Of a DNA stretch of 42,874 nt, positions 1-42,874 are shown piece after piece (within the stretch, counting starts at the first letter, position 1; every line of letters starts with the position of its first letter). Source of the stretch: a virus; IMG/VR virus record IMGVR_UViG_3300027111_000003; one strand, given 5' to 3'. The translations under genes and the position numbers were made by a program. Under the pieces are notes generated by a model. The model did not search any database, was not told the origin of the DNA, and saw nothing but the letters and a program-made list of their open reading frames with translations.

Positions 1-46
1 GATTTAGGTTCTTCCGTGTTTTCTCTCCGGTAAAGAAGACAATAAA

Positions 47-79
47 CTCAAGGTCCTAGCAAACCTTGGGTTTTTCTTT
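47..79 (+). terminator. Intrinsic terminator upstream of the RNAP gene region
   Basis: Stem CTCAAGGT/ACCTTGGG (8 bp including one G-U) with an 8-nt loop, followed by TTTTTCTTT. It lies about 100 bp downstream of tRNA-Leu in the circular map. A duplicate copy sits at 42794-42826. Confidence 0.75.
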
Positions 80-83
80 GCCC

Positions 84-106
84 TAAATATCTTCTGTATC
101 GGAGAG
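84..106 (+). promoter_or_regulatory. Family-A-type 23-bp motif (variant): TAAATATCTTCTGTATC|GGAGAGA
   Basis: A/T-rich 5' end, a pyrimidine block and a GGAGAGA start region. The 11-mer TATCGGAGAGA recurs at 39492-39502. A degenerate second copy, CTGCGATAGCGGAG, lies at 108-121. Confidence 0.4.
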
Positions 107-147
107 ACTGCGATAGCGGAGTGCCACGTTTTCTGGAGGCTAATCAG

Positions 148-345
148 ATGGAAATAAAGGATATTCTTGCGATAATCGGAACGGTGGCGATTTGGTTCGT
201 TGTGACAATGGCACTCCTCGGGATGACCCTGGTGCCTCTGTCCCTTTTCCTGGAGCAGCAGTGGGAACTGTATCTCCAGCGCCGAAAGGATCGCAAGCGG
301 AGAGAACGAGCAGAACGTAACGCGCTGAAAAAGCTGGAGAATTGA
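148..345 (+). CDS. Small membrane protein with basic C-terminal helix (hypothetical)
   Basis: ATG at 148 is preceded by GGAGG with 7-nt spacing. There is one clear hydrophobic span (ILAIIGTVAIWFVVTMALLGMTLVPLSLFL) and then a K/R/E-rich tail. The track ORF 121..345 uses an upstream non-ATG start. Confidence 0.5.
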   Translation: MEIKDILAIIGTVAIWFVVTMALLGMTLVPLSLFLEQQWELYLQRRKDRKRRERAERNALKKLEN

Positions 346-368
346 GAAGATCGCTCCGCTAACGGAGG

Positions 369-391
369 AATTACCCCTCCATACAGCACAT
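369..391 (+). promoter_or_regulatory. Family-B phage promoter candidate B1 (AATTACCCCTCCATACA|G)
   Basis: The 18-bp stretch 369-386 is identical to 12606-12623. It has T3/T7-group architecture and lies 33 nt upstream of the RNAP ATG. Confidence 0.6.
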
Positions 392-423
392 TCGAACAAC
401 CTTCGAGCAACGATGAGGCTTGA

Positions 424-2913
424 ATGATTACCGAAGACCTATACCAGACCGAGCTTGCCCTTGAGGAAGAAGCTCGGGGCCTGACGATCCAGCGGTTCCA
501 CAGAGAGCATCTCAAGGGAACCTTAGAGGAAACCTTCAGTGAGACCTTTCTTGGTTCTCATCTAATCGGAAACTACCTAGTCCCTTACACTCAGGGCATC
601 TCTGAGTGGCTAAGGGCCTCCAATTCAGGCAAGGCAGGAAGGCGTAGTAGAGCTGCTGTCTTGATCGAACACGTCGATCCGGCGCTCCTCGCCTTCCTGA
701 TGCTGAAAGCCATCCTCAACAAGGTGGGTGTCTACCACGAGGGCAAGTCTTGCTCGTTCACCGGCCTAGCCATCTACGGCGCGGGTCTGGTGCACGACGA
801 GCTCCGCCTCCGGGAGTTCGACGCCGAACACGCCAAGTTGTCTAAGCGCATCCACGCCGACTTCGCCAGCCGCGAGCTGACCAGGTCGAAGCGTGAGGAG
901 TACATGCAGAAGGTCTTCGAGAAGCACGACATGGAATGGTCGGTGTGGACGAAGACCGAGATGGTGCAAGTAGGCACGGCGCTCCTGGATGTCTTCCGGG
1001 CCGTCACGGGTGACATCGAGATCATCACCGAGGGAAGCGGCAAGGGGAAGCGGGACGTCGTCCAGCCCTCCCTCGGCCTCCTCCAGGCGGTCGAGATGAC
1101 CTCGGATCACTGCGAGGCTCTCTTCACCACCTACTTCCCGACCGTCATACCGCCCCGTCCGTGGTCGGTGGACACCCTGGAGACCGGAGGCTACCACAGC
1201 CACCACGTCACCCCGTATCCGCTCGTGAAGGCGTCCAAGAAGGCGTACCGCACGATCCTCCGGGATGCCGTGGAAGCCGGAAAGGTGTCTCGGGTCCTCC
1301 AGGCCGTGAATGGCCTCCAGGACACCCGGTGGTGCATCAATGTCCGAGCTCTGGACGCCATCGAGGCTGTCTACGAGCGCAACATCCCTTGCGGCAAGCT
1401 CCCCCGAGCCGACCGGAAGATACCCGACCCGCCGCCGAAGTCGCTGGAGGGCCTGGACATTGACCACCCTGACGTGAAAGCCTACCGCGTATACTGCTTC
1501 GGCGTTCATGAGAACAACCGGCGCATCATTGGCAAGCGCGTCATGGCGCAGCGAGCCTTCCACCTGGCCCGTAAGTTCTCTCAGTTCGAGGCCATCTACT
1601 TTCCACATGACCTCGACAGCCGGGGCAGGGCTTATCCCAAGCCGTCCGGCCTTAACCCTCAAGGACCCGATTATGTCAAAGGCATCCTTCAGTTTGCGGA
1701 GGCCAAAAGTCTCGGGCAAAGCGGCCTCTTCTGGCTGGGAGTGCACGGAGCTAACTGTTATGGGGAGGACAAGCTACCTCTGGACCAACGCTCGACTTGG
1801 GCGCGAGATAATTTGGAGCTCGCCCGACGTGTGGCCCGGAACCCACTGCAAGAACTCTCATGGACTCGATGTGATAACCCTGTCCAGTTCCTCGCGTGGT
1901 GCTTCGAGTGGGCAGAAGCCCATTCCCTCCAAGACCCGACCACGTACCGGTCGCGACTCCATGTAGACCTCGATGCAACCTGCTCCGGCCTCCAGCACTT
2001 CTCGGCTATGCTCCGGGACAAGGTTGGCGGCTTCCACGTCAACATGACGCCCAACGATGTCCGCCAGGATGTCTACGGGGCCGTCGCCAAGGAAGCGATC
2101 AAGCTGATCGATGCTGACGAGGACGAGGAGAAGGTAACCCTCGCCGACGCCTGGAGAACCTTCGGGATGACCCGGAGCACGACCAAGCGATCGGTGATGG
2201 TCAAGCCCTATGCTGGCACCCGCCAGTCTTGCACGAACTATGTCTCCGAAGCCGTCGAGGACGCCCTGAAAGATGGCGTAGCCCTCCCGGTTCCCCGAGA
2301 GCTCATGTGGGAGTTCAAGATGTACGGGGCCGACAAGGTGTGGAAGGCAATCCCAAAGGTTGTCGTCGCCGCAGACGGGGCCATGCAATGGCTCATGGCG
2401 ATCTCACGCCTGGTCGGTAGGTCACAGCCTAGCCAACGCCGGATCGAATGGGTGACCCCCCTGGGGCTCCCGGTGCACCAGTACAAGTTCGACACCCGGT
2501 CCCGCAGGGTCGAGACGTTCTTTGATGGCGCTCGCATCCAGCCCCGGATCACCGAGGACCTCGATAGCCTCGATCCGAGACAGATGGCTACCTCGGTGGC
2601 CCCCTCGTTCGTCCACTCGCTCGACGCTTGCCACCTCCAGGCAACCCTGAGTGCCGCTATGGACGATGGCATGACCTACTTCGCGGCTGTCCACGATAGC
2701 TTCGGGGTCCATGCTGCCGATGTCGAAAGGTTCACCAGGATCATCCGAGAGCAATTCGTTCAGATGTACGAGGAGCACGACGTCCTGGCCGAGTTCCTGG
2801 AGACAGCCTCGCCGTTGATCCTGCCGGAACTTCGGGAGGAAATCCCGACGTTACCCCCTAAGGGCTCCCTGGACCTCCGGGGCATCCTTGAAAATCAGTT
2901 CTTCTTTTCCTGA
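424..2913 (+). CDS. T7-family single-subunit DNA-dependent RNA polymerase
   Basis: 829-aa ORF. Catalytic motifs are visible in the translation (DLDATCSGLQHF, AAVHDSFGVH), as is a specificity-loop region (GARIQPRI) and a C-terminal FFFS foot comparable to T7 FAFA. Confidence 0.97.
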   Translation: MITEDLYQTELALEEEARGLTIQRFHREHLKGTLEETFSETFLGSHLIGNYLVPYTQGISEWLRASNSGKAGRRSRAAVLIEHVDPALLAFLMLKAILNKVGVYHEGKSCSFTGLAIYGAGLVHDELRLREFDAEHAKLSKRIHADFASRELTRSKREEYMQKVFEKHDMEWSVWTKTEMVQVGTALLDVFRAVTGDIEIITEGSGKGKRDVVQPSLGLLQAVEMTSDHCEALFTTYFPTVIPPRPWSVDTLETGGYHSHHVTPYPLVKASKKAYRTILRDAVEAGKVSRVLQAVNGLQDTRWCINVRALDAIEAVYERNIPCGKLPRADRKIPDPPPKSLEGLDIDHPDVKAYRVYCFGVHENNRRIIGKRVMAQRAFHLARKFSQFEAIYFPHDLDSRGRAYPKPSGLNPQGPDYVKGILQFAEAKSLGQSGLFWLGVHGANCYGEDKLPLDQRSTWARDNLELARRVARNPLQELSWTRCDNPVQFLAWCFEWAEAHSLQDPTTYRSRLHVDLDATCSGLQHFSAMLRDKVGGFHVNMTPNDVRQDVYGAVAKEAIKLIDADEDEEKVTLADAWRTFGMTRSTTKRSVMVKPYAGTRQSCTNYVSEAVEDALKDGVALPVPRELMWEFKMYGADKVWKAIPKVVVAADGAMQWLMAISRLVGRSQPSQRRIEWVTPLGLPVHQYKFDTRSRRVETFFDGARIQPRITEDLDSLDPRQMATSVAPSFVHSLDACHLQATLSAAMDDGMTYFAAVHDSFGVHAADVERFTRIIREQFVQMYEEHDVLAEFLETASPLILPELREEIPTLPPKGSLDLRGILENQFFFS

Positions 2914-2914
2914 A

Positions 2915-2937
2915 ACAATCTCTACGATAACGGAGAT
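2915..2937 (+). promoter_or_regulatory. Family-A 23-bp motif (ACAATCTCTACGATAAC|GGAGAT)
   Basis: Conserved core CGATAACGGAGA. It lies immediately after the RNAP stop, and its GGAG doubles as the Shine-Dalgarno for the ATG at 2943. Confidence 0.5.
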
Positions 2938-2942
2938 AAAGT

Positions 2943-3302
2943 ATGACCACCTTCAAGCCAGGTGATAAGGTTCGCGTGAACCCCACGCAGGAAAATATCA
3001 CGTACTTTCGGGCCAACGCTCCCGGAGTGAGTATACAAGACCCCTTCACGGTAAAAGAACAGAGAGGGTACCTTTTATCATGCGAGGAACTTGCGCAGAG
3101 ACACTACGCTGACAGGTTCTATCTCGTCTCACCACCGGTCGCTGAGAAACCCCGCCAGCTCCTCACGGTTCTCCAGATGGATCGGGCTATCGCCGCCGCT
3201 GGCGGGACCCCGAGTGTCCTCGAAGAGTACCTCGATCGGCCACTCTCGGACTTCATCCAGAACGTCATGGCCCCGAACAGTCTCACCCTCAAGTACAAAT
3301 AA
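2943..3302 (+). CDS. Hypothetical protein
   Basis: 119-aa ORF whose ATG lies 7 nt after GGAG. Coding-like composition; no recognisable motif. Confidence 0.7.
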   Translation: MTTFKPGDKVRVNPTQENITYFRANAPGVSIQDPFTVKEQRGYLLSCEELAQRHYADRFYLVSPPVAEKPRQLLTVLQMDRAIAAAGGTPSVLEEYLDRPLSDFIQNVMAPNSLTLKYK

Positions 3303-3309
3303 CGGGAGA
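3287..3309 (+). promoter_or_regulatory. Degenerate family-A motif (AAATAACGGGAGA)
   Basis: ATAACGGGAGA overlaps the stop of the preceding ORF and supplies the SD for the ATG at 3318. It carries one extra G relative to the core. Confidence 0.3.
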
Positions 3310-3317
3310 CCACGCAG

Positions 3318-3803
3318 ATGCGTGCTTTGATCCTGGCGGCACTCTCCGCCCTGGTAATGACAGCATACGCATACGCAGCCCCTATACCGCCGACCTACAC
3401 GATCTCCGAGGATTTCGGAGGCCGCCTGGACGAATACGAGCACAAGTACAACCGGTGGTCCCGCGAGGGTGCCAAGGTGATCCTCGACGGCATCTGCGGG
3501 AGCGCCTGTACGGTGGTCCTCAGTACCAAGTACAACCTGGATGTCTGTGCGACGGACAGGGCCGAGGTCCTCTTCCACATGCCCTTCATGCTCGACAAGC
3601 ACATGAAGCTCGTGGACACCCCGTACAACCGGGCACTCGCGATGGTGATCTGGCACGACCATTTCCTGCGGGTCCTCCCGCCCAAGATGGCGGCTGTACT
3701 GGAGAAGAAAAAGATACCGAGCGTCTACGAAGGCGCTGAGTACAACGAGATGATCGGATGGAAAGCCCCCGATCTTTTCAAACACGTCAAACCCTGTAAC
3801 TAA
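3318..3803 (+). CDS. Secreted/periplasmic protein with cleavable signal peptide (hypothetical)
   Basis: 161 aa. The N-terminus MRALILAALSALVMTAYAYA|AP is a typical Sec signal. The mature part contains G-x-C-G-SAC and several Cys. It weakly resembles ClpP/SppA-fold periplasmic protein families, from memory only. Confidence 0.75.
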   Translation: MRALILAALSALVMTAYAYAAPIPPTYTISEDFGGRLDEYEHKYNRWSREGAKVILDGICGSACTVVLSTKYNLDVCATDRAEVLFHMPFMLDKHMKLVDTPYNRALAMVIWHDHFLRVLPPKMAAVLEKKKIPSVYEGAEYNEMIGWKAPDLFKHVKPCN

Positions 3804-3823
3804 TTCTCTACGATAACGGAGAA
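3801..3823 (+). promoter_or_regulatory. Family-A 23-bp motif (TAATTCTCTACGATAAC|GGAGAA)
   Basis: Exact core CTCTACGATAACGGAGA as at 2920-2936. It overlaps the upstream stop codon and provides the SD for the ATG at 3830. Confidence 0.5.
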
Positions 3824-3829
3824 ATAACC

Positions 3830-4033
3830 ATGTTCAGCCCGACTACCTCGTCTGCCCTCAAGGACCTCACGAAGTCCCTCGCGAAACTTCGCGCCGCCGC
3901 TTCCGCCGCCAACCGCCGCAAGGAAGCCGCCGATCGTCTTATCTGCGACCTCGTCGCCAAGTCCGAAGCCGAGAAGGCCGAGGTCGACCACGCCCTCCGC
4001 GTGGCTAGTAAGCTGTCCGATCTCCTCGCCTGA
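3830..4033 (+). CDS. Hypothetical Ala-rich helical protein
   Basis: 67-aa ORF directly downstream of a family-A motif/SD. Composition looks like a coiled coil. Confidence 0.6.
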   Translation: MFSPTTSSALKDLTKSLAKLRAAASAANRRKEAADRLICDLVAKSEAEKAEVDHALRVASKLSDLLA

Positions 4034-4057
4034 TCCCCCAATACCCATACCTTTTTT

Positions 4058-4080
4058 CTAATCCCTCCGATAACGAAGGA
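4058..4080 (+). promoter_or_regulatory. Family-A 23-bp motif variant (CTAATCCCTCCGATAAC|GAAGGA)
   Basis: TAAT + CCCTCC + GATAAC architecture, sequence-wise intermediate between families A and B. AAGGA serves as the SD for the ATG at 4087. Confidence 0.45.
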
Positions 4081-4086
4081 AATTCA

Positions 4087-4317
4087 ATGACCCCGACTGC
4101 ACAGATGAAAGCCATCCGCTCGAACACCCGCTACGTGGAGGCTTCCGTCCACTACAACCGCCGCAAGTTTGACAAGAAATACGAGGTTGTCGCTCGCCTC
4201 TACGACGACGCCCTCGAAGACCTCGGCGTTGCCATCGGCGGGGAAGTTGTCCTCGACGTCCGCGAAGACCGCCACGACGCCCTCGAAAGCGTCCGCTTCT
4301 TCCGTAACCAGGGCTGA
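4087..4317 (+). CDS. Hypothetical protein
   Basis: 76-aa ORF with an SD 7 nt upstream. Confidence 0.65.
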   Translation: MTPTAQMKAIRSNTRYVEASVHYNRRKFDKKYEVVARLYDDALEDLGVAIGGEVVLDVREDRHDALESVRFFRNQG

Positions 4318-4325
4318 GGTGGACC

Positions 4326-4613
4326 ATGCGAGCACGTCGCTGCCCCGGTTGCGGGGACCGTTTCTACCACAACCCAGCCGAACCCAAGAACACCTGCCAG
4401 AACTGCGCGGGGGAATACGATCCCACGAAGCAAGCGCAGGAAGACGCGGCGAACATCGCCCGTGTCAACGACTTCCGGGTCCTCGGCAATCGTAAGCAGA
4501 CGGTGGACCTGAAGACCCTTCAGGACGCCCAAAAGGCCGCGTCAGGCGATGACGTGGCGGAACCCAATCAGGTGGCCGCACCGGCTCCGCGAGGCAAGAA
4601 TGCAAAGAGTTAA
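4326..4613 (+). CDS. Zinc-ribbon protein (hypothetical)
   Basis: 95 aa. Has CPGC...17 residues...CQNC near the N-terminus. SD GAGGTGG lies upstream of the ATG. Confidence 0.6.
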   Translation: MRARRCPGCGDRFYHNPAEPKNTCQNCAGEYDPTKQAQEDAANIARVNDFRVLGNRKQTVDLKTLQDAQKAASGDDVAEPNQVAAPAPRGKNAKS

Positions 4614-4869
4614 CCTTCCCTTCTTCGTCACCCGAGTCGATAGCGCCGCCCAGTACGTGGATGACTTCGGCGACCTGCTTGATCTGATCGTGGACCAGTC
4701 CGTGGACGATCCTGATTACCAGACTTTCTCCGAGGCGCTCCAGGACGACTGGAACGACGAGGACCACCGCCTTGAAGTCTTCGGCCCCCACTTCACCGAA
4801 GAGACCCTCAAGGACACGCTCGACCTCTGCGAGGCGGTCGAGGCAATGAACAAAGGCTACATTCTCTAA
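4600..4869 (+). CDS. Acidic hypothetical protein
   Basis: ATG at 4600 with a GAGG SD. 89 aa and very Asp/Glu-rich. The track ORF 4549..4869 begins upstream inside the previous gene. Confidence 0.55.
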   Translation: MQRVNLPFFVTRVDSAAQYVDDFGDLLDLIVDQSVDDPDYQTFSEALQDDWNDEDHRLEVFGPHFTEETLKDTLDLCEAVEAMNKGYIL

Positions 4870-5481
4870 ATGGCAAATCCAGTCCTGACACTCACGAAGG
4901 GTGTCGCAGTCTATCCGGCACTGAACCGCCCGGACACCAAATTCGATGAACTCGGCCAGTACAAGGCTGATGTCAAAATGAGCGCCGAGGATGCCGCTCC
5001 CTTCATCGCACGTATCCAGGCGGTCGCCAAGGAACACATGGGCAAGGTCCTTCCCAAGGCCAAGAACTCGGCCTTCGAGATGGTCCTGAACGACGACGGC
5101 GAGGAGACCGGAGAGGTCCTCTTCAAAATCCGAGTGAAGAACAAGCTCCGCAAGTCTGACGGGAAACTGTGGGACCGCCGACCGCTTATCATTGATGCCA
5201 AGAAGAATGACCTCCCGGTGGATGTCGCCATCTGGGGCGGCACCACGATGCGGGTGCAGCTAGAGGTTTACCCGTGGAACACGGGGGCCAAGAAGGGCAT
5301 CTCGCTCCAGCCGATCATGGTCCAGGTCATCGACCTGAAGACCGGGGGTGGCCGAGGTGATACCGACGCCTTCGATGAAGAAGACGGTTACGAGGCCGAG
5401 GAAGAGAACACGGTCAACAAGAACGCCTTCGACAACGAGGACGATGATGCAACCGTAGATACGGGGTCGGATGACTATTAA
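4870..5481 (+). CDS. Single-stranded DNA-binding protein (T7 gp2.5-like)
   Basis: 203 aa, positioned before endonuclease I. The acidic C-terminal tail (DNEDDDATVDTGSDDY) ends in an aromatic residue, as in gp2.5. Confidence 0.8.
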   Translation: MANPVLTLTKGVAVYPALNRPDTKFDELGQYKADVKMSAEDAAPFIARIQAVAKEHMGKVLPKAKNSAFEMVLNDDGEETGEVLFKIRVKNKLRKSDGKLWDRRPLIIDAKKNDLPVDVAIWGGTTMRVQLEVYPWNTGAKKGISLQPIMVQVIDLKTGGGRGDTDAFDEEDGYEAEEENTVNKNAFDNEDDDATVDTGSDDY

Positions 5482-5866
5482 CAGTCACCGGTTCCGTTCC
5501 GGCCTGGAACGACAGGTGGCCCGTCAGCTAGAGCTGGCGGGTCGCCCCTACGGGTTTGAAGAAGACAAGATCGACTACGTCAAACCCGCGAAGAGGGCCA
5601 AGTACAACCCCGACTTTCACGTCATCAAAAAGCGTGATGGGTCCAAAATGTACATCGAGAGCAAAGGCCGCTTCCTCACCGAGGACCGGGCCAAGCATCT
5701 CCTCATCCGAGATCAACATCCCGAGTTGGACATCCGCTTCGTGTTCCAGAACGCGAACGCCCGGATCAGTAAGACCTCGTCCACCACCTACGCCCGGTGG
5801 TGCACCGACAAGGGCTTCAAGTTCTCCGACAAGGGCATCATCCCAAAAGACTGGTTGAATGAATGA
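5471..5866 (+). CDS. Endonuclease I / Holliday-junction resolvase (T7 gp3-like)
   Basis: 131 aa. By-eye alignment to T7 gp3: FRSGLE, YNPDF, ESKG, HLLIRDQHPELDIRFVF, KGFKFSDK. Confidence 0.9.
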   Translation: MTINSHRFRSGLERQVARQLELAGRPYGFEEDKIDYVKPAKRAKYNPDFHVIKKRDGSKMYIESKGRFLTEDRAKHLLIRDQHPELDIRFVFQNANARISKTSSTTYARWCTDKGFKFSDKGIIPKDWLNE

Positions 5867-6501
5867 GAGTACTCGTTGCCTGTGAATACTCAGGCCGGGT
5901 CCGGGACGCCTTCGCTGCGCTGGGACACTACGCCCTTTCCTGTGACCTACTCCCTACGGAAGCAGAGGGAAACCACTACCAAGGCGATGTATCGGACATC
6001 ATAAACGACGGCTGGGACCTCATGGTTGCCCACCCGCCCTGCACGGACCTCGCGGTCTCCGGGGCTCGCCACTTCGCCGCCAAGATCGCCGATGGTCGCC
6101 AGCAGAGAGCCTTGGATTTCGTCCAGTTCCTCATGGATGCCCCCATCGATCGCATCTGCATTGAGAACCCCATCAGCATTATCAGCAGCCGCATCCGCAA
6201 GCCTGAGCAGATCATCCAGCCGTGGCAGTTTGGTCATCCTGAATTCAAGGCGACGTGTCTCTGGCTCAAGGGTCTCCAGCCGCTCACCCCGGTTAACCCA
6301 TTGGTTCCTCCTACAAAGCCCACAGGTTTCCTTACTCCCGAGGAATATGAGATCGCGTTGAAAGAGTGGCGGGGATGGAACCGAGTTCATCAGCTTCCCC
6401 CCGGTCCCAACCGGTGGAAGGAGCGCAGCCGCACCTTCGAGGGTGTCGCCGCAGCGATGGACGACCAGTGGGGACGTGAAGAACTCAAGGCGGTTGCATG
6501 A
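5863..6501 (+). CDS. Small C5-cytosine-methyltransferase-like protein (no recognisable target-recognition domain)
   Basis: 212 aa. Has motif-I-like VLVACEYSG, motif-IV-like HPPCTDLAVSG (Pro-Cys) and motif-VI-like IENP. ATGA overlap with the upstream stop. Confidence 0.55.
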   Translation: MRVLVACEYSGRVRDAFAALGHYALSCDLLPTEAEGNHYQGDVSDIINDGWDLMVAHPPCTDLAVSGARHFAAKIADGRQQRALDFVQFLMDAPIDRICIENPISIISSRIRKPEQIIQPWQFGHPEFKATCLWLKGLQPLTPVNPLVPPTKPTGFLTPEEYEIALKEWRGWNRVHQLPPGPNRWKERSRTFEGVAAAMDDQWGREELKAVA

Positions 6502-8195
6502 GCGAAGCGATCCAGACGCACCAACCGTGCGACGATTGCGGCTCCTCAGATGCCCTCACGGTCTACGCCGACCACACATATTGCTTCTCCTGTGAAACCC
6601 GAAGGAACACCGATGGCGAATCCAGTCCTGACCATCATTCCCATTCTGATAGCGATGGATCGAACAAAGCCCTATACCGGTGCACCTACTCGGCACTCGC
6701 CAAGCGCAACATCACCGAGGAAACGGCGAGATTTTGGTCCTACGGTCGTACTGATGCTCTCGGGCGCAGTGCTGTCCACTGTGCTAATTACCTTGATCTT
6801 AATCGGCAAGTAGTTGCCCAGAAATTAAGGCTGCCTGACAAGACCTTCCCCTGGACAAACCGAGCGGCCTTCAAGGGTCTCTACGGCCAGTGGCTCTGGC
6901 GGGACGGAGGCAAGCAGGTGGTCATCACCGAGGGCGAGATCGATGCCCTGAGTGTGTCACAAGTCCAGCAGAACAAGTGGCCCGTGGTGTCCCTCGTGGA
7001 CGGCGGGGGCAAGAACGCCGTCAAGCCGATCAAGGAAGCCTACGAGTGGCTCCAGAAGTTTGAGAAGATCATCCTCTTCTTCGACAACGACGACAAGGGC
7101 CGCCAGACGGTCGAGATCGTCAAGCGGATGCTGCCGCTAGGTAAGGTGTACATCGCGTTTGCCCCAGAGGGCTTCAAGGACGCGAATGACATGCTCATGG
7201 CGGGGAAGGGCAAACAGATCATCGATACGATCTGGGGAGCCAAGCAGTACCGCCCTGAGGGACTCGTGAGTGGCTCGTCGGTCATCGATCGTCTCCGCAA
7301 CCGCCCGAAGGTCCAAGCCTATCCGTACCCCGCCTTCATGGAGCAGCTCAATTACAAGACCGGTGGCGGCATCCGCCTTGGCGAACTGGACACCTGGACG
7401 TCCGGGACCGGCATGGGCAAGACGACGATCATTAAGGCCCTCCAGCACCACTACTTCCACACGACCTCCTTCAACCAGGCCCTCATCCACCTCGAAGAAC
7501 CTCTCGAAGACACCGGGGACGACCTGATCGCCTACGAGGTCGCCAAGAGGTTCACCGTGGACGACCCGGACTTTCGGGACACCCTCGAATACTCGACCGC
7601 CGCCGAGAAGCTGTTCCTGGCGAAGGACGAGGAGGGCAACGACCGGCTGCAACTCTATGATGCCTTCGGGTCTATGGAGGACGAGAGCCTCTACGAGATC
7701 ATCCGCTACGCCGCCAAGGCGCAGAACTGCAAGATGGTGTGGCTAGACCACCTCTCCATCCTTGTCTCCGACATGGGCGACGGGGCAGGGGCCGATGAGC
7801 GCAAGCGCATCGACAGCATCATGCACAACCTCAAGTCCCTCACGGTCGAGCTCGGCATCTACGTCGGCCTCATCTCACATCTTAGGAAACCCCCAGGAAA
7901 TGGTAAGTCCTTCGAGCAAGGCGCTGTTCCGTCACTTGATGACCTTCGCGGTTCTGGTGGCATTAAGCAGCTCTCAAATGGTGTCTTCGCTATCTCCCGA
8001 GATCAGCAAGCAACCGACCCAACAGTACGCAATACTTCCACGGTCTCCGTCCTTAAGTGTCGCAAGACGGGGCGGACAGGCACCGCGGATTTCCTGACTT
8101 TCTCGGACGCCACAGGGCGCATCGAGAGAGGCACGGACCCGGCACTCGCCGATAACAAGACTGCCTTTAATGACGAAAGCAACGGAGAATACTGA
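6498..8195 (+). CDS. Bifunctional DNA primase/helicase (T7 gp4-like)
   Basis: 565 aa. Has an N-terminal Cys4 zinc ribbon (CDDCGSSD...CFSC), TOPRIM acidic motifs (EGEIDALS, FFDNDDKG), Walker A GTGMGKTT, and a DnaB-like C-terminal half. Confidence 0.95.
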   Translation: MSEAIQTHQPCDDCGSSDALTVYADHTYCFSCETRRNTDGESSPDHHSHSDSDGSNKALYRCTYSALAKRNITEETARFWSYGRTDALGRSAVHCANYLDLNRQVVAQKLRLPDKTFPWTNRAAFKGLYGQWLWRDGGKQVVITEGEIDALSVSQVQQNKWPVVSLVDGGGKNAVKPIKEAYEWLQKFEKIILFFDNDDKGRQTVEIVKRMLPLGKVYIAFAPEGFKDANDMLMAGKGKQIIDTIWGAKQYRPEGLVSGSSVIDRLRNRPKVQAYPYPAFMEQLNYKTGGGIRLGELDTWTSGTGMGKTTIIKALQHHYFHTTSFNQALIHLEEPLEDTGDDLIAYEVAKRFTVDDPDFRDTLEYSTAAEKLFLAKDEEGNDRLQLYDAFGSMEDESLYEIIRYAAKAQNCKMVWLDHLSILVSDMGDGAGADERKRIDSIMHNLKSLTVELGIYVGLISHLRKPPGNGKSFEQGAVPSLDDLRGSGGIKQLSNGVFAISRDQQATDPTVRNTSTVSVLKCRKTGRTGTADFLTFSDATGRIERGTDPALADNKTAFNDESNGEY

Positions 8196-8197
8196 CG

Positions 8198-8389
8198 ATG
8201 AGTGATCGACACGTAACGATCTCTGACGACGAATACGCAAGCCTCCTAGATGACCGGAAGTGGCGACAATGCCTCGAAGATGGTGGTGTGGACAACTGGA
8301 GCTATTACTTCGAGAGCCTCCAAGTAGGCGGCTACTTCGGCGAAGATAATGATCTCGTGGATGAAGACACACTCTTCAGACACGGATGA
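8198..8389 (+). CDS. Hypothetical acidic protein
   Basis: 63-aa ORF beginning 3 nt after the helicase stop. Confidence 0.5.
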   Translation: MSDRHVTISDDEYASLLDDRKWRQCLEDGGVDNWSYYFESLQVGGYFGEDNDLVDEDTLFRHG

Positions 8390-8759
8390 AACTGACGCGG
8401 TCTTCCACCGCGCCGAGCGGTTGACCCTCGAAGCAACCGCCGAACCCAAACTGCTCCCCCAATACCAAGACGCAATGAAACAAGCCCGAGCCCTTGAAGG
8501 TGCTCCGGGATGGAAAGGAAAAACACGCATGACCCAGGTAGAGAAAATCCTCAATCACATCCAGAAGAACGGCTCGATCACGCAGCGTGAAGCGTACCTC
8601 GACTACAGCATCCAGAGCTTCCACCGCCGCCTCTCGGACATCCGCGAGATGGGCATCAAGTTGCTCCCGGTGACCAAGGTCCATCCGACTACCGGACAGG
8701 AATACACGCGCTACTACCTCGCTGGCTCCAAGGCCAACCAGAAGCCGATCGCCGCGTGA
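8349..8759 (+). CDS. Winged-helix DNA-binding protein (HTH_39-like); start uncertain
   Basis: The C-terminal segment ILNHIQKNGSITQREAYLDYSIQSFHRRLSDIREMGIKL...YTRYYL looks like a phage winged-helix domain. Alternative in-frame ATGs at 8475 and 8529. Confidence 0.55.
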   Translation: MISWMKTHSSDTDETDAVFHRAERLTLEATAEPKLLPQYQDAMKQARALEGAPGWKGKTRMTQVEKILNHIQKNGSITQREAYLDYSIQSFHRRLSDIREMGIKLLPVTKVHPTTGQEYTRYYLAGSKANQKPIAA

Positions 8760-8982
8760 CCTACGGGGAAACCTTTTGGCGCACCGTGAGGCTCAGTCTC
8801 ACGGTTGCCCTCCCGGTCCTAGCGGCCATCCTCCTGTCTTTCTAACGGTGAACGTGATGCGCCTGATCGTTATCCTATTGTTCTCGTTCCTTGTTTTGTC
8901 GGTGGCGAACTTCGTGACCAACGTCCTGCTACTGGTACTGTGAGTGAACGACCACACAAACGAAAACCTACCGAGTGATCTC

Positions 8983-9015
8983 AAGGTCTCACGGCGCGGA
9001 GACCTTCTTATTTTC
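8983..9015 (+). terminator. Hairpin plus T-rich tract in the helicase-polymerase intergenic region
   Basis: Perfect 8-bp stem AAGGTCTC/GAGACCTT with an 8-nt loop, followed by CTTATTTTC. Confidence 0.4.
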
Positions 9016-9110
9016 ACGACCCGCACAGCAATCATCTCCATCGACTTCAAACGTCGGGAGGAGATCATAGCGGCCATTCGTGCTCTGACTTAACATACCG
9101 GGGCAACCCA

Positions 9111-11006
9111 TTGAAAACTTTGATATTTGACATCGAGACCGATGGGTTCCTCGAAACGATGACCCGCGTCCACTCGCTTGTCATCAAGGACCCGGACACT
9201 GGAGACCTTACCTCCTGTGCCGCCGACTACGCCATAGACGGTAGGGCTGTTGAGGACGGACTTCACCGCCTCATGGAAGCTGATCGGATCGTCGGCCACA
9301 ACATCATCAAGTTCGACCTCCCGGCGATCCAGAAGGTTTACCCCTGGTTCACCTATGACCCCTCGAAGGTCTTCGACACCCTCGTCGCCTCGCGCCTCAT
9401 CTGGACACAGATCGTGGACACCGACATGGGCAAGATCAGGGCAGGGACCACCACCCTCCCACCGAAGCTCGCCGGTCGCCACGGCCTGGAAGCCTGGGGC
9501 CACCGCCTCGGGAACTGGAAGGGCGACTACGCGAAGATGATGGAAGACCAGGGCCTCGACCCCTGGGCCGCCTGGTCGCAAGACATGCAGGACTACTGCG
9601 AGCAGGACGTCGAGGTAAACGCCCAGCTCTACCAGCTCATCCTAGACAAGAACTACTCCGAGCAAGCCCTTGAAATTGAACGACGTATCGCGTTCATCAT
9701 GGCTGAGATGGAGCGGACAGGCTTCGGCTTTGACGTCGAGAACGCCGAGAAACTCTATGTCAAGCTCGCCGGTAAACGTGAGGAGCTCTCCCAGGAACTC
9801 CGCAACCTCTTCCAGCCCTGGTTCGTCAAGGACGGGCCGATAAAGGAGCCCAAGAAACCCCTGGCTCGCCTCGGGTACTGGGGCCACAAGAACGACGACG
9901 GCTCCTGGACAGGCTACCCCTTCCAGAAGGTCAAGCTCACTGTCTTCAATCCAAACTCACGAGACCACATAGCCGACCGCCTCATGCGGGTTCGCGGCTG
10001 GAAGCCTACCGAGATGACCCCCGGTGGCAAGCCCAAAGTGGACGAAGATGTCCTCGCTGGTCTCAAGTACCCCGAAGCCCAAGCCCTGACCGACTTCATG
10101 ACGCTCCAGAAGCGTATCGGCCAGTTAGCGGAGGGCGACAACGCCTGGATCAAGCTGGTCAAGGCGAACGGGCGCATCCACGGCTCGATCAACCCAAACG
10201 GGGCGGTCACCGGGAGAGCAACTCACAACACTCCGAATATCGCCCAGGTTCCTAAGGTCGGGACCCTCTACGGGGCCGAGTGCCGTGCCCTGTTCCTCGC
10301 CAAGATGAAGGGCCGGGTGCAGCTCGGCTGCGACGTCTCTGGTCTCGAACTGCGAATGCTTGGTCATTTCATGGCGAAGCACGACGGCGGGGCCTATGGC
10401 CGCGAGGTGATCGAGGGAGACATCCACACGATCAACCAGACAGCCGCAGGGCTCCCCACGCGAGACGATGCCAAGACCTTCATCTACGCCTTCCTATACG
10501 GGGCGGGGGACGGAAAGATTGGCTCGATCATCGGCAAGGGACGCAACGCGGGACGGCTCATAAAGAAGAAGTTCTTTGAGAAGGTCCCCGCTCTGGCGAA
10601 ACTCGTGGAGGGTGTCAAGGCCGCCGCAAACAGCAAGGGTTACCTGAAGGGCCTCGACGGTCGCCTCCTGCACATCCGCTCGGACCACGCTGCGCTCAAC
10701 ACGCTGTTGCAGTCGGCAGGGGCCATCGTGTGCAAGCAGTGGATCATAGAATTCTACGATCTCCTGTCCGAACACGGGCTGCACGACAAGGTTGCTATCG
10801 TGGCATGGGTACATGATGAGTTGCAAATGGAAGTCGATCGGTCGCTCCTCCGGGAGGAACTGAACGACAAAGGCGAGACGGTCATCAAGTCGCTCGTCGG
10901 TGATCTGTGCATCCAAGCGATTGAACGCGCAGGAAATAAACTCGGCATCCGTGTGCCGCTCACTGGTGAATACAAGACTGGAAAGAACTGGAAGGACTGC
11001 CACTGA
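9111..11006 (+). CDS. Family A DNA polymerase (T7 gp5-like)
   Basis: 631 aa. Has Exo I DIETDG and pol motifs CDVSGLELRML, RDDAKTFIYAFLYGAG and WVHDELQ. Only a TTG start (9111) precedes the conserved DIETD. Confidence 0.95.
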   Translation: MKTLIFDIETDGFLETMTRVHSLVIKDPDTGDLTSCAADYAIDGRAVEDGLHRLMEADRIVGHNIIKFDLPAIQKVYPWFTYDPSKVFDTLVASRLIWTQIVDTDMGKIRAGTTTLPPKLAGRHGLEAWGHRLGNWKGDYAKMMEDQGLDPWAAWSQDMQDYCEQDVEVNAQLYQLILDKNYSEQALEIERRIAFIMAEMERTGFGFDVENAEKLYVKLAGKREELSQELRNLFQPWFVKDGPIKEPKKPLARLGYWGHKNDDGSWTGYPFQKVKLTVFNPNSRDHIADRLMRVRGWKPTEMTPGGKPKVDEDVLAGLKYPEAQALTDFMTLQKRIGQLAEGDNAWIKLVKANGRIHGSINPNGAVTGRATHNTPNIAQVPKVGTLYGAECRALFLAKMKGRVQLGCDVSGLELRMLGHFMAKHDGGAYGREVIEGDIHTINQTAAGLPTRDDAKTFIYAFLYGAGDGKIGSIIGKGRNAGRLIKKKFFEKVPALAKLVEGVKAAANSKGYLKGLDGRLLHIRSDHAALNTLLQSAGAIVCKQWIIEFYDLLSEHGLHDKVAIVAWVHDELQMEVDRSLLREELNDKGETVIKSLVGDLCIQAIERAGNKLGIRVPLTGEYKTGKNWKDCH

Positions 11007-11245
11007 TGCAACGCTTTCATCCTGTGCCGGGGTTCCTCGGCATCTCCTACGGAGACATGACGACCAACGCCATCATCTGGGGCATGGACGGGGAGTTCTA
11101 CTTCTACGTCGTCTCCCGAGCGGAGGCCGCCCAGATCGAGGAGTGGCACCAGCGGGACACCCTCGAAGACTGCGTGTCGAAACTCGCCAAGATTCTCCCG
11201 AGGGCATCCAACGATGACCTCTCGATGTTCTGCTGGGGTATGTGA
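11006..11245 (+). CDS. Hypothetical protein
   Basis: 79-aa ORF with an ATGA overlap on the polymerase stop. Confidence 0.55.
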   Translation: MQRFHPVPGFLGISYGDMTTNAIIWGMDGEFYFYVVSRAEAAQIEEWHQRDTLEDCVSKLAKILPRASNDDLSMFCWGM

Positions 11246-11539
11246 TTGATCGGTCCCCTCTTCTTCATTCTAAACATGGACGCCCCTCCCGAGTACCGGG
11301 TGGACCTCTATTGTAGCCGCAAGAGAGTGACCAGGACGCATGTCCACTTTGAGGTCATCAACGGTTGCTGGGACGGACAGATCAATCCCGAAACCGGCGA
11401 GCTCCTAATTAAGGCGACCGGCGGCATCTCTCGAAACAACCGCATCCTCAATGTCTCCCCGCCCAAAAATCGGAGCGGCAACTACAACGATGCAATTAAC
11501 TGGGCCAGGGAATACCTGATTGAAAACTCTCCTGATTGA
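11246..11539 (+). CDS. Hypothetical protein (start TTG 11246 or ATG 11276)
   Basis: 97/87-aa ORF filling the gap before the exonuclease gene. Confidence 0.5.
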   Translation: MIGPLFFILNMDAPPEYRVDLYCSRKRVTRTHVHFEVINGCWDGQINPETGELLIKATGGISRNNRILNVSPPKNRSGNYNDAINWAREYLIENSPD

Positions 11540-12547: not shown

Positions 12548-12560
12548 CTATCGACACATA

Positions 12561-12587
12561 GAGGGTTCCTTCGGGGACCCTCTTTTT
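12561..12587 (+). terminator. Strong hairpin terminator at the end of the DNA-metabolism block
   Basis: 9-bp stem GAGGGTTCC/GGGGACCCTC with a UUCG tetraloop, followed by TTTTT. Confidence 0.85.
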
Positions 12588-12605
12588 GTTTGTCAAGTAC
12601 AAAAT

Positions 12606-12628
12606 AATTACCCCTCCATACAGAGAGA
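12606..12628 (+). promoter_or_regulatory. Family-B phage promoter candidate B2 (AATTACCCCTCCATACA|GAGAGA)
   Basis: Identical to the T3 consensus AATTAACCCTCACTAAAGGGAGA at 18 of 23 positions. It lies immediately after the terminator and ahead of the structural block. Confidence 0.65.
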
Positions 12629-17615: not shown

Positions 17616-17620
17616 ACCCT

Positions 17621-17633
17621 CCCAGGTAACCCC
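17621..17633. repeat. 13-bp direct repeat CCCAGGTAACCCC, right copy
   Basis: Identical to 16477-16489. It also forms the hairpin CCCAGG-TAACC-CCTGGG. Confidence 0.9.
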
Positions 17634-17662
17634 TGGGTGGGCTGTGAAGTATCAGATCAAGG

Positions 17663-17685
17663 AAGATCACCACACTATAGCCGCT
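17663..17685 (+). promoter_or_regulatory. Possible late promoter upstream of the capsid gene (AAGATCACCACACTATA|G)
   Basis: Contains ACACTATAG, identical to the SP6 promoter core, and shares 10 of 18 positions with family B. Single occurrence, so this is weak. Confidence 0.3.
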
Positions 17686-17849
17686 CCTCTTTAGGAGGGC
17701 GATCTCCCTTATGATTTCGAGCAAAACGAATACTCTCAAGTAACCTCAGGTCCCCTCGGGGAATAACCTCCAGATGAAACCGAGTTTTCCGAAGCGAAGT
17801 CACACCGCGCCGCCTTTGCCGCGCACTCTGATTACTTCCGAGAACTTTA

Positions 17850-18821
17850 ATGCCTCAGTCCACAACTACCACTGCTGGTGTACCGGCAGGTCCGTCCCAT
17901 TCGGACAACCTCTACCTGAAGGTCTTCTCTGGTGAGACCATGAAGGTCTTCAACAAGCGCACGGCTCTCAAGGGTCGCCACCGCGAACGCACGATTGCCT
18001 CGGGTAAGAGCGCACAGTTCGCTGCGATCGGCAAGGCCGCCGCAGAATATCATACGCCGGGTAATCTGATCCTCGGTCAGGACATCAACCACGGCGAGAA
18101 GGTCATCACCATCGATGACATGCTCATCTCCTCGACGTTCGTCTCGAACTTCGAAGAGGCCATGAACCACTACGAGACCCGTAGCGAGTATGCCTTCCAG
18201 ATGGGTGACAGCCTTGCTCAGGCGTATGACCAGCACCTCTTTGCTATCGCCACCAAGGCGGCTGTCAACGGCACGACCGGCGCAGTTACCGAGATGGGCG
18301 CTGCTACCGAAGACAAGATCGGTGCCACGCCGACGATCGCCAACATCGTTGACGCAATCTACAACGCCGCTGCCTACTTCGACGCGACGAACGTCCCGGA
18401 CACCGAGCGCACCGCGTTCGTCACTCCGTCCGTCTACTGGGACCTCGTCCAGGACGGCTCGTTCCTCGACCGTGACTTCGGCAACGATGGTAACGGCTCG
18501 CAGTCCAAGGGCGCTGTCTACCGCGCTGCTGGCATCGAGATCGTTCCCTCGAACAACCTCGCGCTGAACTTCGGCGTGGCTACGCTCGCTGGCCGTCAGG
18601 CTGGCTCGGCCACCACGGACTACACCGTAGACGGCTCCACGTCGCTCGTCCTCATCATGCAGAAACAGGCCCTCGGCACTGTCAAGCTGATGAACCTCGC
18701 GACGGAGAAGGAATACCAGGTTGGCCGTCAGGGCACCCTGATGGTCTCCCGTATGGCTTGCGGTCACGGCGTTCTGCGCCCTGAGTGCATCCGCCTGATC
18801 TCCGCGAAGGCCGCCGCCTAA
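17850..18821 (+). CDS. Major capsid protein (T7 gp10A-like)
   Basis: 323 aa. By-eye alignment to T7 gp10: LYLKVFSGE, SGKSAQF, EKVITIDD, EEAMNHYETRSEY. Confidence 0.96.
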   Translation: MPQSTTTTAGVPAGPSHSDNLYLKVFSGETMKVFNKRTALKGRHRERTIASGKSAQFAAIGKAAAEYHTPGNLILGQDINHGEKVITIDDMLISSTFVSNFEEAMNHYETRSEYAFQMGDSLAQAYDQHLFAIATKAAVNGTTGAVTEMGAATEDKIGATPTIANIVDAIYNAAAYFDATNVPDTERTAFVTPSVYWDLVQDGSFLDRDFGNDGNGSQSKGAVYRAAGIEIVPSNNLALNFGVATLAGRQAGSATTDYTVDGSTSLVLIMQKQALGTVKLMNLATEKEYQVGRQGTLMVSRMACGHGVLRPECIRLISAKAAA

Positions 18822-18830
18822 CACTCCATA

Positions 18831-18861
18831 GGGAGGTCCTTAATTGGGCCTCCCTTTTTTT
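18831..18861 (+). terminator. Terminator after the capsid gene (T-phi analogue)
   Basis: 9-bp stem GGGAGGTCC/GGGCCTCCC with a 6-nt loop, followed by TTTTTTT. Confidence 0.85.
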
Positions 18862-18878
18862 CCTTAGGGAGCCTTCCC

Positions 18879-33941: not shown

Positions 33942-34112
33942 ACTAACTATCTATCACGTTATGTTACACTCTGTAACAATTCACCTCGTAAAGCTGCTGG
34001 ATAGCAGCGTACATCCAACCAAGCATATATAGCACACGCGCATAACGCACGGTTCCAATCCTATACCGATGGCCCCTCAGCGCAGCCGCTCAAACTTTCT
34101 TCGATAAGCCTG

Positions 34113-34141
34113 TTGACTTCGATAACGGAGATATGCTTATC
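34113..34141 (+). promoter_or_regulatory. Host-type promoter candidate P2 fused to a family-A core (TTGACTTCGATAACGGAGA)
   Basis: The -35 hexamer TTGACT is directly followed by CGATAACGGAGA. A possible -10 (GCTTAT/CTTATC) lies 16-17 nt downstream. Confidence 0.45.
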
Positions 34142-34350: not shown

Positions 34351-34378
34351 TTGACTTCGATAACGAAGCGAATACAGT
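34351..34378 (+). promoter_or_regulatory. Host-type promoter candidate P3 (TTGACT-N16-TACAGT) fused to a family-A-like core
   Basis: TTGACTTCGATAACGAAG followed by TACAGT. It has the same -10 flavour as the regulator promoter at 39906. Confidence 0.5.
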
Positions 34379-34707: not shown

Positions 34708-34995
34708 ATGACCGTCACAATCAAAACCGATAACAAATGGAAAGACTTCAAGTACGCCAACGAGGTTCCGGCAAAGGTCCTCGCGTCACAGTTCGACCAC
34801 CTGGAGGACGAAACTGATGGTTTCATCCTATACCGTGGCCGCTGGTATCACCTTTCGGACTTCATGCGCGTTCCTGAAGGGGCGGAGGACTTGAAGGGCT
34901 GGCATGGTTACGCCGGTGATAGTTTCTTTAGTGGCGTCCTCATCAAAGTGAGCCGCGACGGCGAGCAATATATGATTGCCACGCATTTGTCCTAA
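34708..34995 (+). CDS. Early protein, hypothetical
   Basis: 95 aa from the ATG at 34708, 8 nt after GGGGAG. The track ORF starts upstream at a non-ATG codon. First gene downstream of P1-P3. Confidence 0.65.
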   Translation: MTVTIKTDNKWKDFKYANEVPAKVLASQFDHLEDETDGFILYRGRWYHLSDFMRVPEGAEDLKGWHGYAGDSFFSGVLIKVSRDGEQYMIATHLS

Positions 34996-35014
34996 TCTCT
35001 GCGATAACGGAGAG
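34992..35014 (+). promoter_or_regulatory. Family-A 23-bp motif (CTAATCTCTGCGATAAC|GGAGAG)
   Basis: Overlaps the upstream stop codon. Its downstream sequence GAGAGACACG is shared with family-B copy B2. Confidence 0.5.
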
Positions 35015-35147: not shown

Positions 35148-35480
35148 ATGGACATCGATTTTAGCACGGCAACTGCCATCGGCATCATTAACCGATCAAT
35201 CCTTATGCATCCGTCTCTTTTCAGGGATGCCGTGATGTCCCGCTATCAGGAGGACATTGGCTATGCGTCCAAGTCCGAAGGCCGCACCCGTCAAGCCGTT
35301 CTCGCAAGTGCCGACGCATCCCTTCGAGGATATAACATCGTGGCGGAGGGATACCAGATCGATGCAATCGACATGGCTTCCGGTATCATCCTGCTTAACA
35401 TCGCGTGTAAGCTCCAATGCATCCCAGCGTATGTCAGGACGGCAGCAGCCCTCCGCACTTGGCCGGGCGACGACGTCTAA
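35148..35480 (+). CDS. Early protein, hypothetical
   Basis: 110 aa from the ATG at 35148, 8 nt after GGAGA. The track ORF starts at 35088 with a non-ATG codon. Confidence 0.55.
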   Translation: MDIDFSTATAIGIINRSILMHPSLFRDAVMSRYQEDIGYASKSEGRTRQAVLASADASLRGYNIVAEGYQIDAIDMASGIILLNIACKLQCIPAYVRTAAALRTWPGDDV

Positions 35481-35500
35481 TTCCCTGCGATAACGTAGAG
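35478..35500 (+). promoter_or_regulatory. Family-A 23-bp motif variant (TAATTCCCTGCGATAAC|GTAGAG)
   Basis: Overlaps the stop at 35478-80 and is followed by a structured leader. Confidence 0.45.
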
Positions 35501-35743: not shown

Positions 35744-35816
35744 TGCGATTGTCTCTGATACACCTCGCGTGTCTCCTGGTGTTAACCATCGGGTTTCTCG
35801 CGGGTGAAACTGTGTT

Positions 35817-35839
35817 CTAATCTCTCCGATTGTGAAGGG
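35817..35839 (+). promoter_or_regulatory. Degenerate family-A motif (CTAATCTCTCCGATTGTGAAGGG)
   Basis: The upstream half is identical to family A; the downstream half has diverged. Confidence 0.3.
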
Positions 35840-36341: not shown

Positions 36342-36361
36342 CCGAGGAGAGGTGTGTCCGA

Positions 36362-36550
36362 ATGCCTACGATAACGGAGACAACAGGTCTCACCACAGAA
36401 GCCCTCGAAGCTGTCATCGAGGAGCTCCGCGCCAACGATAGTCCCCTGGTGCCTGGGATAACCGTGAGTAACCAGCGGCGGATACCCGTTGTGGACTTCT
36501 ATTTCCCAAGGCTGTGGGGGGGCCCACCCCGACCTCCTCGTTGTCGATGA
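36362..36550 (+). CDS. Short ORF, possibly the true N-terminus of the following large protein (frame change at a G7 run)
   Basis: Strong SD (GAGGAGAGG) 9 nt upstream of the ATG at 36362. The ORF overlaps the +1 frame ORF, which is open from 36489. G7 lies at 36516-36522. Confidence 0.35.
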   Translation: MPTITETTGLTTEALEAVIEELRANDSPLVPGITVSNQRRIPVVDFYFPRLWGGPPRPPRCR

Positions 36551-36584
36551 CATCGAGGTCCTCGGCCTCCGGGAGGTGTCCCAG

Positions 36585-38216: not shown

Positions 38217-38259
38217 CGTCGCCTCCCTCAAACCTATACCAAACTTAGAGGAGGCCGAC

Positions 38260-42747: not shown

Positions 42748-42874
42748 GATTTAGGTTCTTCCGTGTTTTCTCTCCGGTAAAGAAGACAATAAACTCAAGG
42801 TCCTAGCAAACCTTGGGTTTTTCTTTGCCCTAAATATCTTCTGTATCGGAGAGACTGCGATAGCGGAGTGCCAC
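42748..42874. repeat. Terminal direct repeat, copy 2 (identical to 1..127)
   Basis: Exact duplicate of the first 127 bases. Confidence 0.95.

Follow-up and report, generated by a model that had tools for sequence, protein, structure and literature searches.

An 18-bp sequence, AATTACCCCTCCATACAG, occurs in two exact copies in the 42,874-nucleotide stretch of viral DNA analyzed here as a whole (the window) and is very probably a promoter for the RNA polymerase (RNAP) that the same phage encodes. The best explanation, which we hold with high confidence on sequence grounds, is that it would be the cognate promoter of a T7-type RNAP, its two copies opening two polymerase-dependent transcription units. 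The repeat, its placement, its conservation and its covariation with the polymerase were computed in silico; initiation at the G, feedback and repression are what we infer. The features on which the argument turns are the following.

369–391, + strand: early copy of the putative promoter, −17 to +6, with its core at 369–386 and a predicted start at G386
12606–12628, + strand: late copy, −17 to +6, with its core at 12606–12623, a predicted start at G12623 and a predicted initial transcript GAGAGA
424–2913, + strand: single-subunit T7-type RNAP gene, 829 amino acids (Pfam RNA_pol, E 4e-100)
2494–2544, + strand: specificity-loop codons, TRSRRVETFFDGARIQP, placed by two alignments and a blind covariation scan
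12560–12593, + strand: terminator with a UUCG-loop hairpin and a T-run, ending the replication-gene unit directly 5' of the late promoter
17850–18821, + strand: major capsid gene (Pfam Gp10A-like match)
18830–18865, + strand: terminator, a strong hairpin and T-run right after the major capsid gene, at the position of T7 T-phi

An earlier note on this DNA had reported the identical core at 369–386 and 12606–12623, and a scan of the window bears it out: both copies are exact and on the + strand, and the window holds no third copy at up to three mismatches. About 0.01 matches are expected by chance, and none of 100 window shuffles contained two. When up to 6 of the 18 positions were allowed to differ, no degenerate extra copies were found, the additional sites all falling within genes (the best at 38079, with 5/18 mismatches). 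An exact 17-mer was also matched in unrelated viral contigs, a few chance matches being expected at the size of the collection. Both copies are intergenic and share the orientation of the genes, which comprise RNAP, primase-helicase, DNA polymerase, exonuclease, portal, scaffold and capsid, all on the + strand.

The note had further likened the 23-mer at 12606 to the T3 promoter consensus. Recomputation returned the same 18 of 23 positions, the top score of the window on both strands, with a runner-up at 15/23. Since 30 mononucleotide shuffles scored 14–17 (maximum 17), the T3 likeness is real yet alone just modestly over chance, and by itself it is suggestive, not decisive. The motif reads AATTA / CCCCTC / CATACA / G; it contains the CTC at −9 to −7 and the CC at −11/−10 that had been singled out as T3-like, and it has a tripartite layout, with an AT-rich stretch at −17 to −13, a variable one at −12 to −7, a TA-rich melting region and a G at +1. 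Across 15 related genomes the variation of the motif is concentrated at −12 to −7.

The placement of the copies, which the note had described as just upstream of the RNAP gene and right after a strong terminator at the head of the structural block, proved accurate. Between the end of the first copy and the RNAP ATG there are 38 nt, and the gene has an ordinary Shine-Dalgarno sequence. The second begins 23 nt past a 10-bp GC-rich hairpin and T-run (12560–12583) and sits 18 nt upstream of the first small gene of the structural block. In the 10 genomes from which a late copy was recovered, a GC-rich hairpin lies 2–25 nt 5' of that copy in 10/10 (dG −16 to −27 kcal/mol), followed by a T-run in most of them. 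A minus-strand terminator-like hairpin overlapping the second copy (12630–12609) was dismissed because it needs G-T pairs and downstream bases that are absent at the first copy. The 234-bp non-coding gap 5' of the capsid gene (17616–17849) is without a promoter copy.

The polymerase itself belongs to the T7 family of single-subunit RNAPs. A clade profile matches the T7 RNAP chains of the PDB at E 7e-192, and the window RNAP is 33% identical to T7 and T3 RNAP, 35% to that of phage Pasto and 39.6% to the closest RNAP from a cultured phage. The note had placed the specificity loop by eye at about nt 2480–2560, and its peptide SRRVETFFDGARIQP is indeed encoded at about 2500–2544. It had also called for a proper structural alignment of the loop. 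Two improved alignments were made, one with L-INS-i on 20 sequences and the other by matching a profile HMM of 48 sequences to the T7 RNAP chains 1aro/1cez. Both give the proposed register, with a one-residue deletion falling in the hairpin turn. A quick 5-sequence MAFFT alignment, which had put a Val at T7 N748, is superseded by L-INS-i, the profile HMM and the covariation described below. The four base-reading positions are as follows.

2506–2508, + strand: R695, equivalent to T7 R746
2512–2514, + strand: E697, equivalent to T7 N748 (Asp in T3)
2533–2535, + strand: R704, equivalent to T7 R756
2539–2541, + strand: Q706, equivalent to T7 Q758

The Arg and Gln residues that the note expected to read −9 to −7 are thus conserved in both alignments, and the acidic residue that it saw at the N748 position is E697, by both better alignments and by covariation in 15 genomes.

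Relatives were drawn from viral, metagenome and genome collections, complemented by contig look-ups, and the resulting clade set comprises 15 genomes with 52–100% RNAP identity. A nucleotide search of cultured phages returned no close relative, the best match being 73% over 660 bp to a Mesorhizobium phage fragment. Each relative carries its own version of the motif at syntenic sites, and the copies within one genome agree.

L094: ATTACCCCTCCATACAG, 2 copies, identical to the window
L003: ATTACCCCTCCATATAG, at least 1 copy
L174: ATTACCCCTTCATACAG, 3 copies
L002: ATTAGGGCTTCATACAG, 3 copies (three matches in a 42.8-kb contig in the exact 17-mer scan of the collection)
L177: AATTAGGTGCCCATACTG, 2 copies
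L181: ATTAGGG(A/G)CCCATACAG, 2 copies
L180: ATTACCCCCTCATAATG, 2 copies
L179: TAAAAACCTGCCATACAG, 2 copies
L183: AATTAAA(T/G)CTTCATAGAA, 2 copies
L182: AATTTCCCCCTCATATTG, 3 copies
L178, L189, L190 and L191: one early copy each

The early copy lies about 40–60 nt 5' of the RNAP gene in L094, L174, L002, L177–L181, L183 and L189–L191, and about 300 nt 5' of it in L182. Copies of the early type are mostly followed by CACAT or CACAA (exceptions: CACTAC in L094 and CTCGCC at one L182 copy), and those of the late type by AGAGA or AGATA (exceptions: GAACAA in L179 and TAGAGA in L183).

Two further observations concern the number of copies and the mosaicism of these genomes. One or two extra promoter copies lie just 3' of the RNAP gene in L174 (12870), L002 (3137) and L182 (12769 and 13131), so the promoter number varies between 2 and 3 among phages 82–86% identical in RNAP. 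A second contig of the window phage (L001) encodes a 100% identical RNAP protein; its DNA is 99% identical to the window over 1–5874 and 86–95% over about 6.5–11.2 kb, and the distance separating its two promoter copies is smaller by about 720 bp (compared region 5875–11520). This divergence points to a recent exchange of modules within the replication genes.

Comparison of the motif versions with the loops provides the main evidence for the promoter reading (residues are numbered as in T7). At 746, 748, 756 and 758 the window has R, E, R and Q, L002 has Q, K, M and Q, and L181 has R, K, I and K. Among the 15 genomes, Arg or Lys at 746 goes with −7C in 7 and Gln with −7T in 8, with no exceptions. 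At 748, Glu or Asp accompanies −11C (8/8), Lys accompanies −11G (4/4) and Asn accompanies AA(G/T) at −12 to −10 (2 genomes), again without exception; at both −11 and −10, E697 pairs with CC and Lys with GG. Gln at 758 is found with −8T in 7 genomes and with −8G in one, and Lys with −8C in 7. Arg at 756 goes with −9C in 6/6 cases, and several genomes keep −9C though residue 756 is not Arg; together with the single Gln758/−8G case, this means that the code is not one-to-one everywhere.

A blind scan of 549 variable RNAP columns, run on 11 of the clade genomes, returned residue 695 as the sole column that partitions with −7, and residue 697 as the sole one that partitions with −12. In the identity matrix the −7 states are mixed across the two sub-clades, which indicates several independent changes rather than one inherited change. 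Predictions made beforehand also held: from its loop (Q, E, I, K), L182 was expected to carry −7T, CCC and −8C, and AATTTCCCCCTCATATTG was found in three copies; −7T and −8C were likewise found in L189 and L191, as predicted. The 15-genome covariation confirms the proposed loop register (R695=R746, E697=N748, R704=R756, Q706=Q758). The T3-like promoter reading advanced in the earlier note is upheld by position, by orientation, by the conserved terminator-promoter pair and by concerted change within each related genome.

An RNAP-promoter recognition code has been derived by genome mining of T7-like phages (Zhu et al. 2025, PMC11880802). In that work residue 748 is coupled with −11/−10, 756 with −10/−9, 758 with −8 and 746 with −7; the preferences include Asp with C, Lys with G and Arg746 with −7C, and the 746/−7 combination scarcely varies, 91% of pairs having R and C. 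The residue-base couplings and preferences of the present clade agree with that set. Unlike it, the clade switches repeatedly between R/C and Q/T at 746/−7, with one K/C case, and the frequent Gln/−7T state may be regarded as a mild extension of the published code.

The window is the complete genome of a temperate T7-like phage. Its lysogeny and attachment features are listed below.

39966–41277, + strand: lysogeny module, a regulator gene overlapping an integrase gene
39966–40343, + strand: predicted transcriptional regulator, 125 amino acids (phrog_9665, 5.6e-14)
40309–41277, + strand: tyrosine integrase (Pfam Phage_integrase, 1.5e-21)
42566–42650: intact phage-borne tRNA-Leu(TAG), about 100 bp from the attachment site
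1–12, + strand: attachment-site core GATTTAGGTTCT, also at 42748–42759, forming the junction with the anticodon loop of the host tRNA-Leu(TAG)

The integrase is 31% identical to that of Pasto (E 1e-36); the regulator is barely similar to its Pasto counterpart (25%, E 0.004) and has no Pfam MarR match. An Rfam search detected tRNA only. The same phage is seen both free and integrated in Rhizobiales genomes. A 94-kb bacterial contig (L186) encodes the identical RNAP, with MnmG and YjiS genes upstream, and at the junctions in L186 (about 2458–2590) and L174 (9553–9590) the 5' half of the host tRNA is joined exactly to window position 1. Integration thus splits the host tRNA-Leu(TAG) gene with no restoration, and the phage brings a complete replacement tRNA-Leu; in the prophage, RNAP is the leftmost large gene. 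Bacterial genes lie upstream in L174, L178, L179, L180, L181, L182 and L189. In L185 and L187 the genes follow the order integrase, tRNA, RNAP of the circular form. Bacterial isolates seem to carry two of the relatives: L174 comes from Rhizobiales bacterium isolate AFS086343, and an RNAP with the specificity loop of L002 is assigned by NCBI to Rhizobium sp. Leaf341. The integrase and regulator genes, together with the integrated and circular forms, identify the phage as temperate. A 127-bp terminal repeat (1–127 = 42748–42874) starts exactly at the integration junction; because window position 1 is exactly that junction, the repeat is probably an assembly overlap at a graph branch point and not a virion end.

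Other elements of the region deserve mention. A terminator-like hairpin at 44–73 (= 42791–42820), kept in L174 (about 9620–9650), separates the attachment junction from the RNAP control region. It would stop read-through coming from the truncated host tRNA gene in the prophage, or from the lysogeny operon in the circular form. Downstream of this hairpin, as far as the RNAP gene, no convincing host promoter was seen, and a sigma-70 match at 149–176 was set aside, being inside a small ORF. In the Aminobacter prophage L182 (9890–9998), the phage promoter is about 300 nt 5' of the RNAP gene and a good alphaproteobacterial sigma-70-type promoter, TTGACGA-N14-TCTAGAAC, lies just 5' of that gene, offering a possible host-driven route to the first RNAP message. 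The early/lysogeny region of the window also encodes, at 36489–39270, a 575-aa protein without family match and an M28-like zinc peptidase, and the same order is found in Pasto (a hypothetical protein of 516 aa and a zinc peptidase) and in L190.

A second repeat family, which we call D1, abuts the early promoter. Its consensus is CTAATCTCTNCGATAACGGAGA, with the core TCTNCGATAACGGAGA, CG[A/T]TAACG, and the window holds 28 matches where 1.25 are expected. The interval from the attachment junction to the early promoter contains four sites (24–39, 90–105, 107–122 and 353–368).

353–368, no strand assigned: D1 site GCTCCGCTAACGGAGG, a palindrome abutting −18 of the early promoter, candidate operator
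2911–2936, 3797–3822, 4054–4079, 34106–34131 and 34354–34369: other D1 sites
34988–35013, 35474–35499, 35813–35838, 36355–36380 and 38185–38200: further D1 sites

Most copies end in a ribosome-binding site, 6–10 nt 5' of the ATG of a small early gene. D1-like palindromes also stand 5' of the early promoter copies in relatives, whose versions show symmetric changes (TCTACGTTAACGTAGA in L174, TCACTCCGTTAGCAGTGA in L181); a D1-like site precedes each extra post-RNAP promoter copy, and at the corresponding place (2911–2943) the window has a D1 site alone. D1 was considered as the true phage promoter and rejected: it has just 6–11 positions in common with the 18-mer or T7, is palindromic and is without relation to the RNAP loop in relatives. 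Inspected by eye as a host promoter, D1 showed no consistent −35/−10 pattern. D1 could be a repressor operator or a “stoperator”, or else an RNA hairpin masking translation starts. That it would be the operator of the regulator encoded next to the integrase is something that we infer only.

Taken together, these elements suggest the following mechanism. The 18-mer would span −17 to +1 of the promoter, with initiation at its final G. The specificity-loop hairpin would read the major groove from −12 to −7, R695 contacting the −7 C:G pair, E697 reading CC at −11/−10, R704 the −9 C:G pair and Q706 the −8 T:A pair, while AATTA (−17 to −13) would be the AT-rich upstream contact and CATACA the melting region. 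From G386 the early copy would drive RNAP and the replication genes, this unit ending with the terminator at 12560, and since a promoter for the phage RNAP would then act on the RNAP gene itself, positive feedback is predicted. From G12623 the late copy would restart transcription into the structural and packaging genes, with a partial stop after the capsid gene.

Since the phage is temperate, a self-amplifying early copy would have to stay silent in the lysogen. Silencing is probably exerted through the palindromes abutting the promoter, bound by the integrase-adjacent regulator, and integration between the lysogeny/early operon and the RNAP gene probably also cuts read-through. More tentatively, and with rather low confidence, the early copy, the D1 cluster and the attachment site could together act as a lysis-lysogeny switch that depends on genome topology. 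While the genome is circular, host transcription of the regulator-integrase operon could run on past the tRNA and terminator and reach the RNAP gene; such a leak would ignite the self-amplifying promoter, and integration would remove that input. The D1 sites by the promoter and before about ten early genes, where they overlap ribosome-binding sites, could silence the leak, acting either as operators or “stoperator”-like roadblocks or as RNA hairpins over translation starts.

Several features count against the promoter reading, among them the modest excess of the T3 match over shuffles, the positions at which the code is not one-to-one and the search that found no convincing host promoter for the first RNAP message. 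The window contains only two copies (three in some relatives), to be compared with about 13 promoter copies per genome in typical T7-like phages (PMC11880802), and at −6 to −2 the motif has CATAC where the T7 group has a highly conserved CACTA. Four other readings of the repeat were weighed. The early copy might mainly prime DNA replication and not polymerase auto-amplification, a reading compatible with cognate promoter function that we consider unlikely. According to the T3 annotation, the primary origin of T3 adjoins promoter phi1.05, beside gene 1; T7/T3 promoters just after gene 1 serve the primary origin, and L174, L002 and L182 have their extra copies just 3' of the RNAP gene. Against this, copy 1 is directed towards the RNAP gene, from which a 38-nt leader with an ordinary Shine-Dalgarno sequence separates it; there is no origin-like AT-rich tract after it, and the window is without a post-RNAP copy. 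We rate as very unlikely that the 18-mer is no promoter and instead the site of another phage protein, be it the lysogeny regulator or the integrase/excisionase at arm-type sites. The phage is temperate and does encode a regulator and an integrase, and copy 1 is about 370 bp from the attachment junction; yet the motif lacks symmetry and runs in the direction of the genes wherever it occurs, copy 2 is 12.6 kb away from the attachment site and lies at a conserved boundary between terminator and structural genes, the changes in the motif track RNAP residues 695 and 697 uniquely among the 549 variable columns, and the palindromic D1 family is a better operator candidate.

Lower still we place the idea of a promoter for the host RNA polymerase, with sigma-70 or an alternative sigma factor, even though the first transcription of the RNAP gene must come from the host enzyme and copy 1 is the sole conserved element just 5' of that gene. 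A sigma-70 scan found nothing at either copy, no −35/−10 arrangement being present, and the motif covaries with the phage polymerase, not with the host. L174 and the window phage (integrated as L186) use the same host tRNA-Leu target, and L174 has −7T where the window phage has −7C. Least probable of all, in our judgement, is a functionless repeat arising by chance or as a scar of module exchange. Having two copies only would suit it, as would the mosaic structure of the relatives, for which L001 is the example. Against this stand the chance expectation given above, the retention of the positions down to 52% RNAP identity while the flanking DNA diverged, and the structured, predictive nature of the variation within the motif. 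What tells most strongly against the last three readings is that the motif covaries with the phage polymerase rather than the host.

The analysis yields what would be the first transcription map for an uncultured lineage of temperate T7-like Rhizobiales phages, made of two terminator-bounded, polymerase-dependent units. It also checks the recognition code independently, on prophages and metagenomes, and the code predicted promoters in genomes that were still unexamined at that point. The Arg/−7C to Gln/−7T switching, together with the E/K (CCC/GGG) and Q/K (−8T/−8C) pairs, suggests ready-made orthogonal polymerase-promoter sets for synthetic biology, and the clade may supply natural, mutually orthogonal pairs. 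Finally, how temperate T7-like phages remain silent is a question to which a self-driving polymerase promoter in one of them is relevant.

With T3 and T7 promoters, the window motif shares the 18-bp span from −17 to +1 and the G at +1, and the GAGAGA after the late copy recalls GGGAGA. With the T3 promoter in particular it shares AATTA at −17 to −13, CC at −11/−10 and CTC at −9 to −7; the window RNAP has an acidic residue at 748 like T3 RNAP (Asp in T3, Glu here), and Arg, Arg and Gln at 746, 756 and 758 like T7 RNAP. The differences are equally clear: the polymerase has only 33% identity with those of T7 and T3, and the hairpin turn of its loop lacks one residue; the motif has C at −12, and CATAC instead of ACTAA/ACTAT at −6 to −2; the window has two copies as against 10–17; and a copy stands upstream of the polymerase gene, which in T7 and T3 is served by host promoters. 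The T3 promoter proper (AATTAACCCTCACTAAAGGGAGA, Teetrevirus) was rejected as an assignment on the 18/23 agreement, the three mismatches in −6 to −2 and the 33% RNAP identity. “T3-like” denotes a common recognition code, not kinship, the window motif apparently working like a T3 promoter at −11/−10 without being one.

A promoter by which the RNAP gene drives itself has already been described in the temperate T7-like phages LUZ100 and Pasto, and the present motif would be another such promoter. In the Pseudomonas phage LUZ100, the phage-specific promoter phi1 was mapped experimentally directly 5' of the RNAP gene, with a positive-feedback model and a MarR-like repressor proposed to bind beside the promoter (PMC10134795); a self-driving promoter 5' of the RNAP gene of Pasto is cited in the same paper. 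Copy 1 is, like phi1, directly 5' of the RNAP gene. The window shares with Pasto (a Rhizobium/Agrobacterium phage, MT708545) the order integrase and regulator operon, tRNA-Leu, terminator, small membrane ORF and RNAP, and with both phages a tyrosine integrase beside an HTH/MarR-like regulator and attachment at a tRNA gene. It differs from Pasto and LUZ100 in the promoter sequence, and in that the window phage splits the host tRNA in its anticodon loop and carries a replacement tRNA-Leu.
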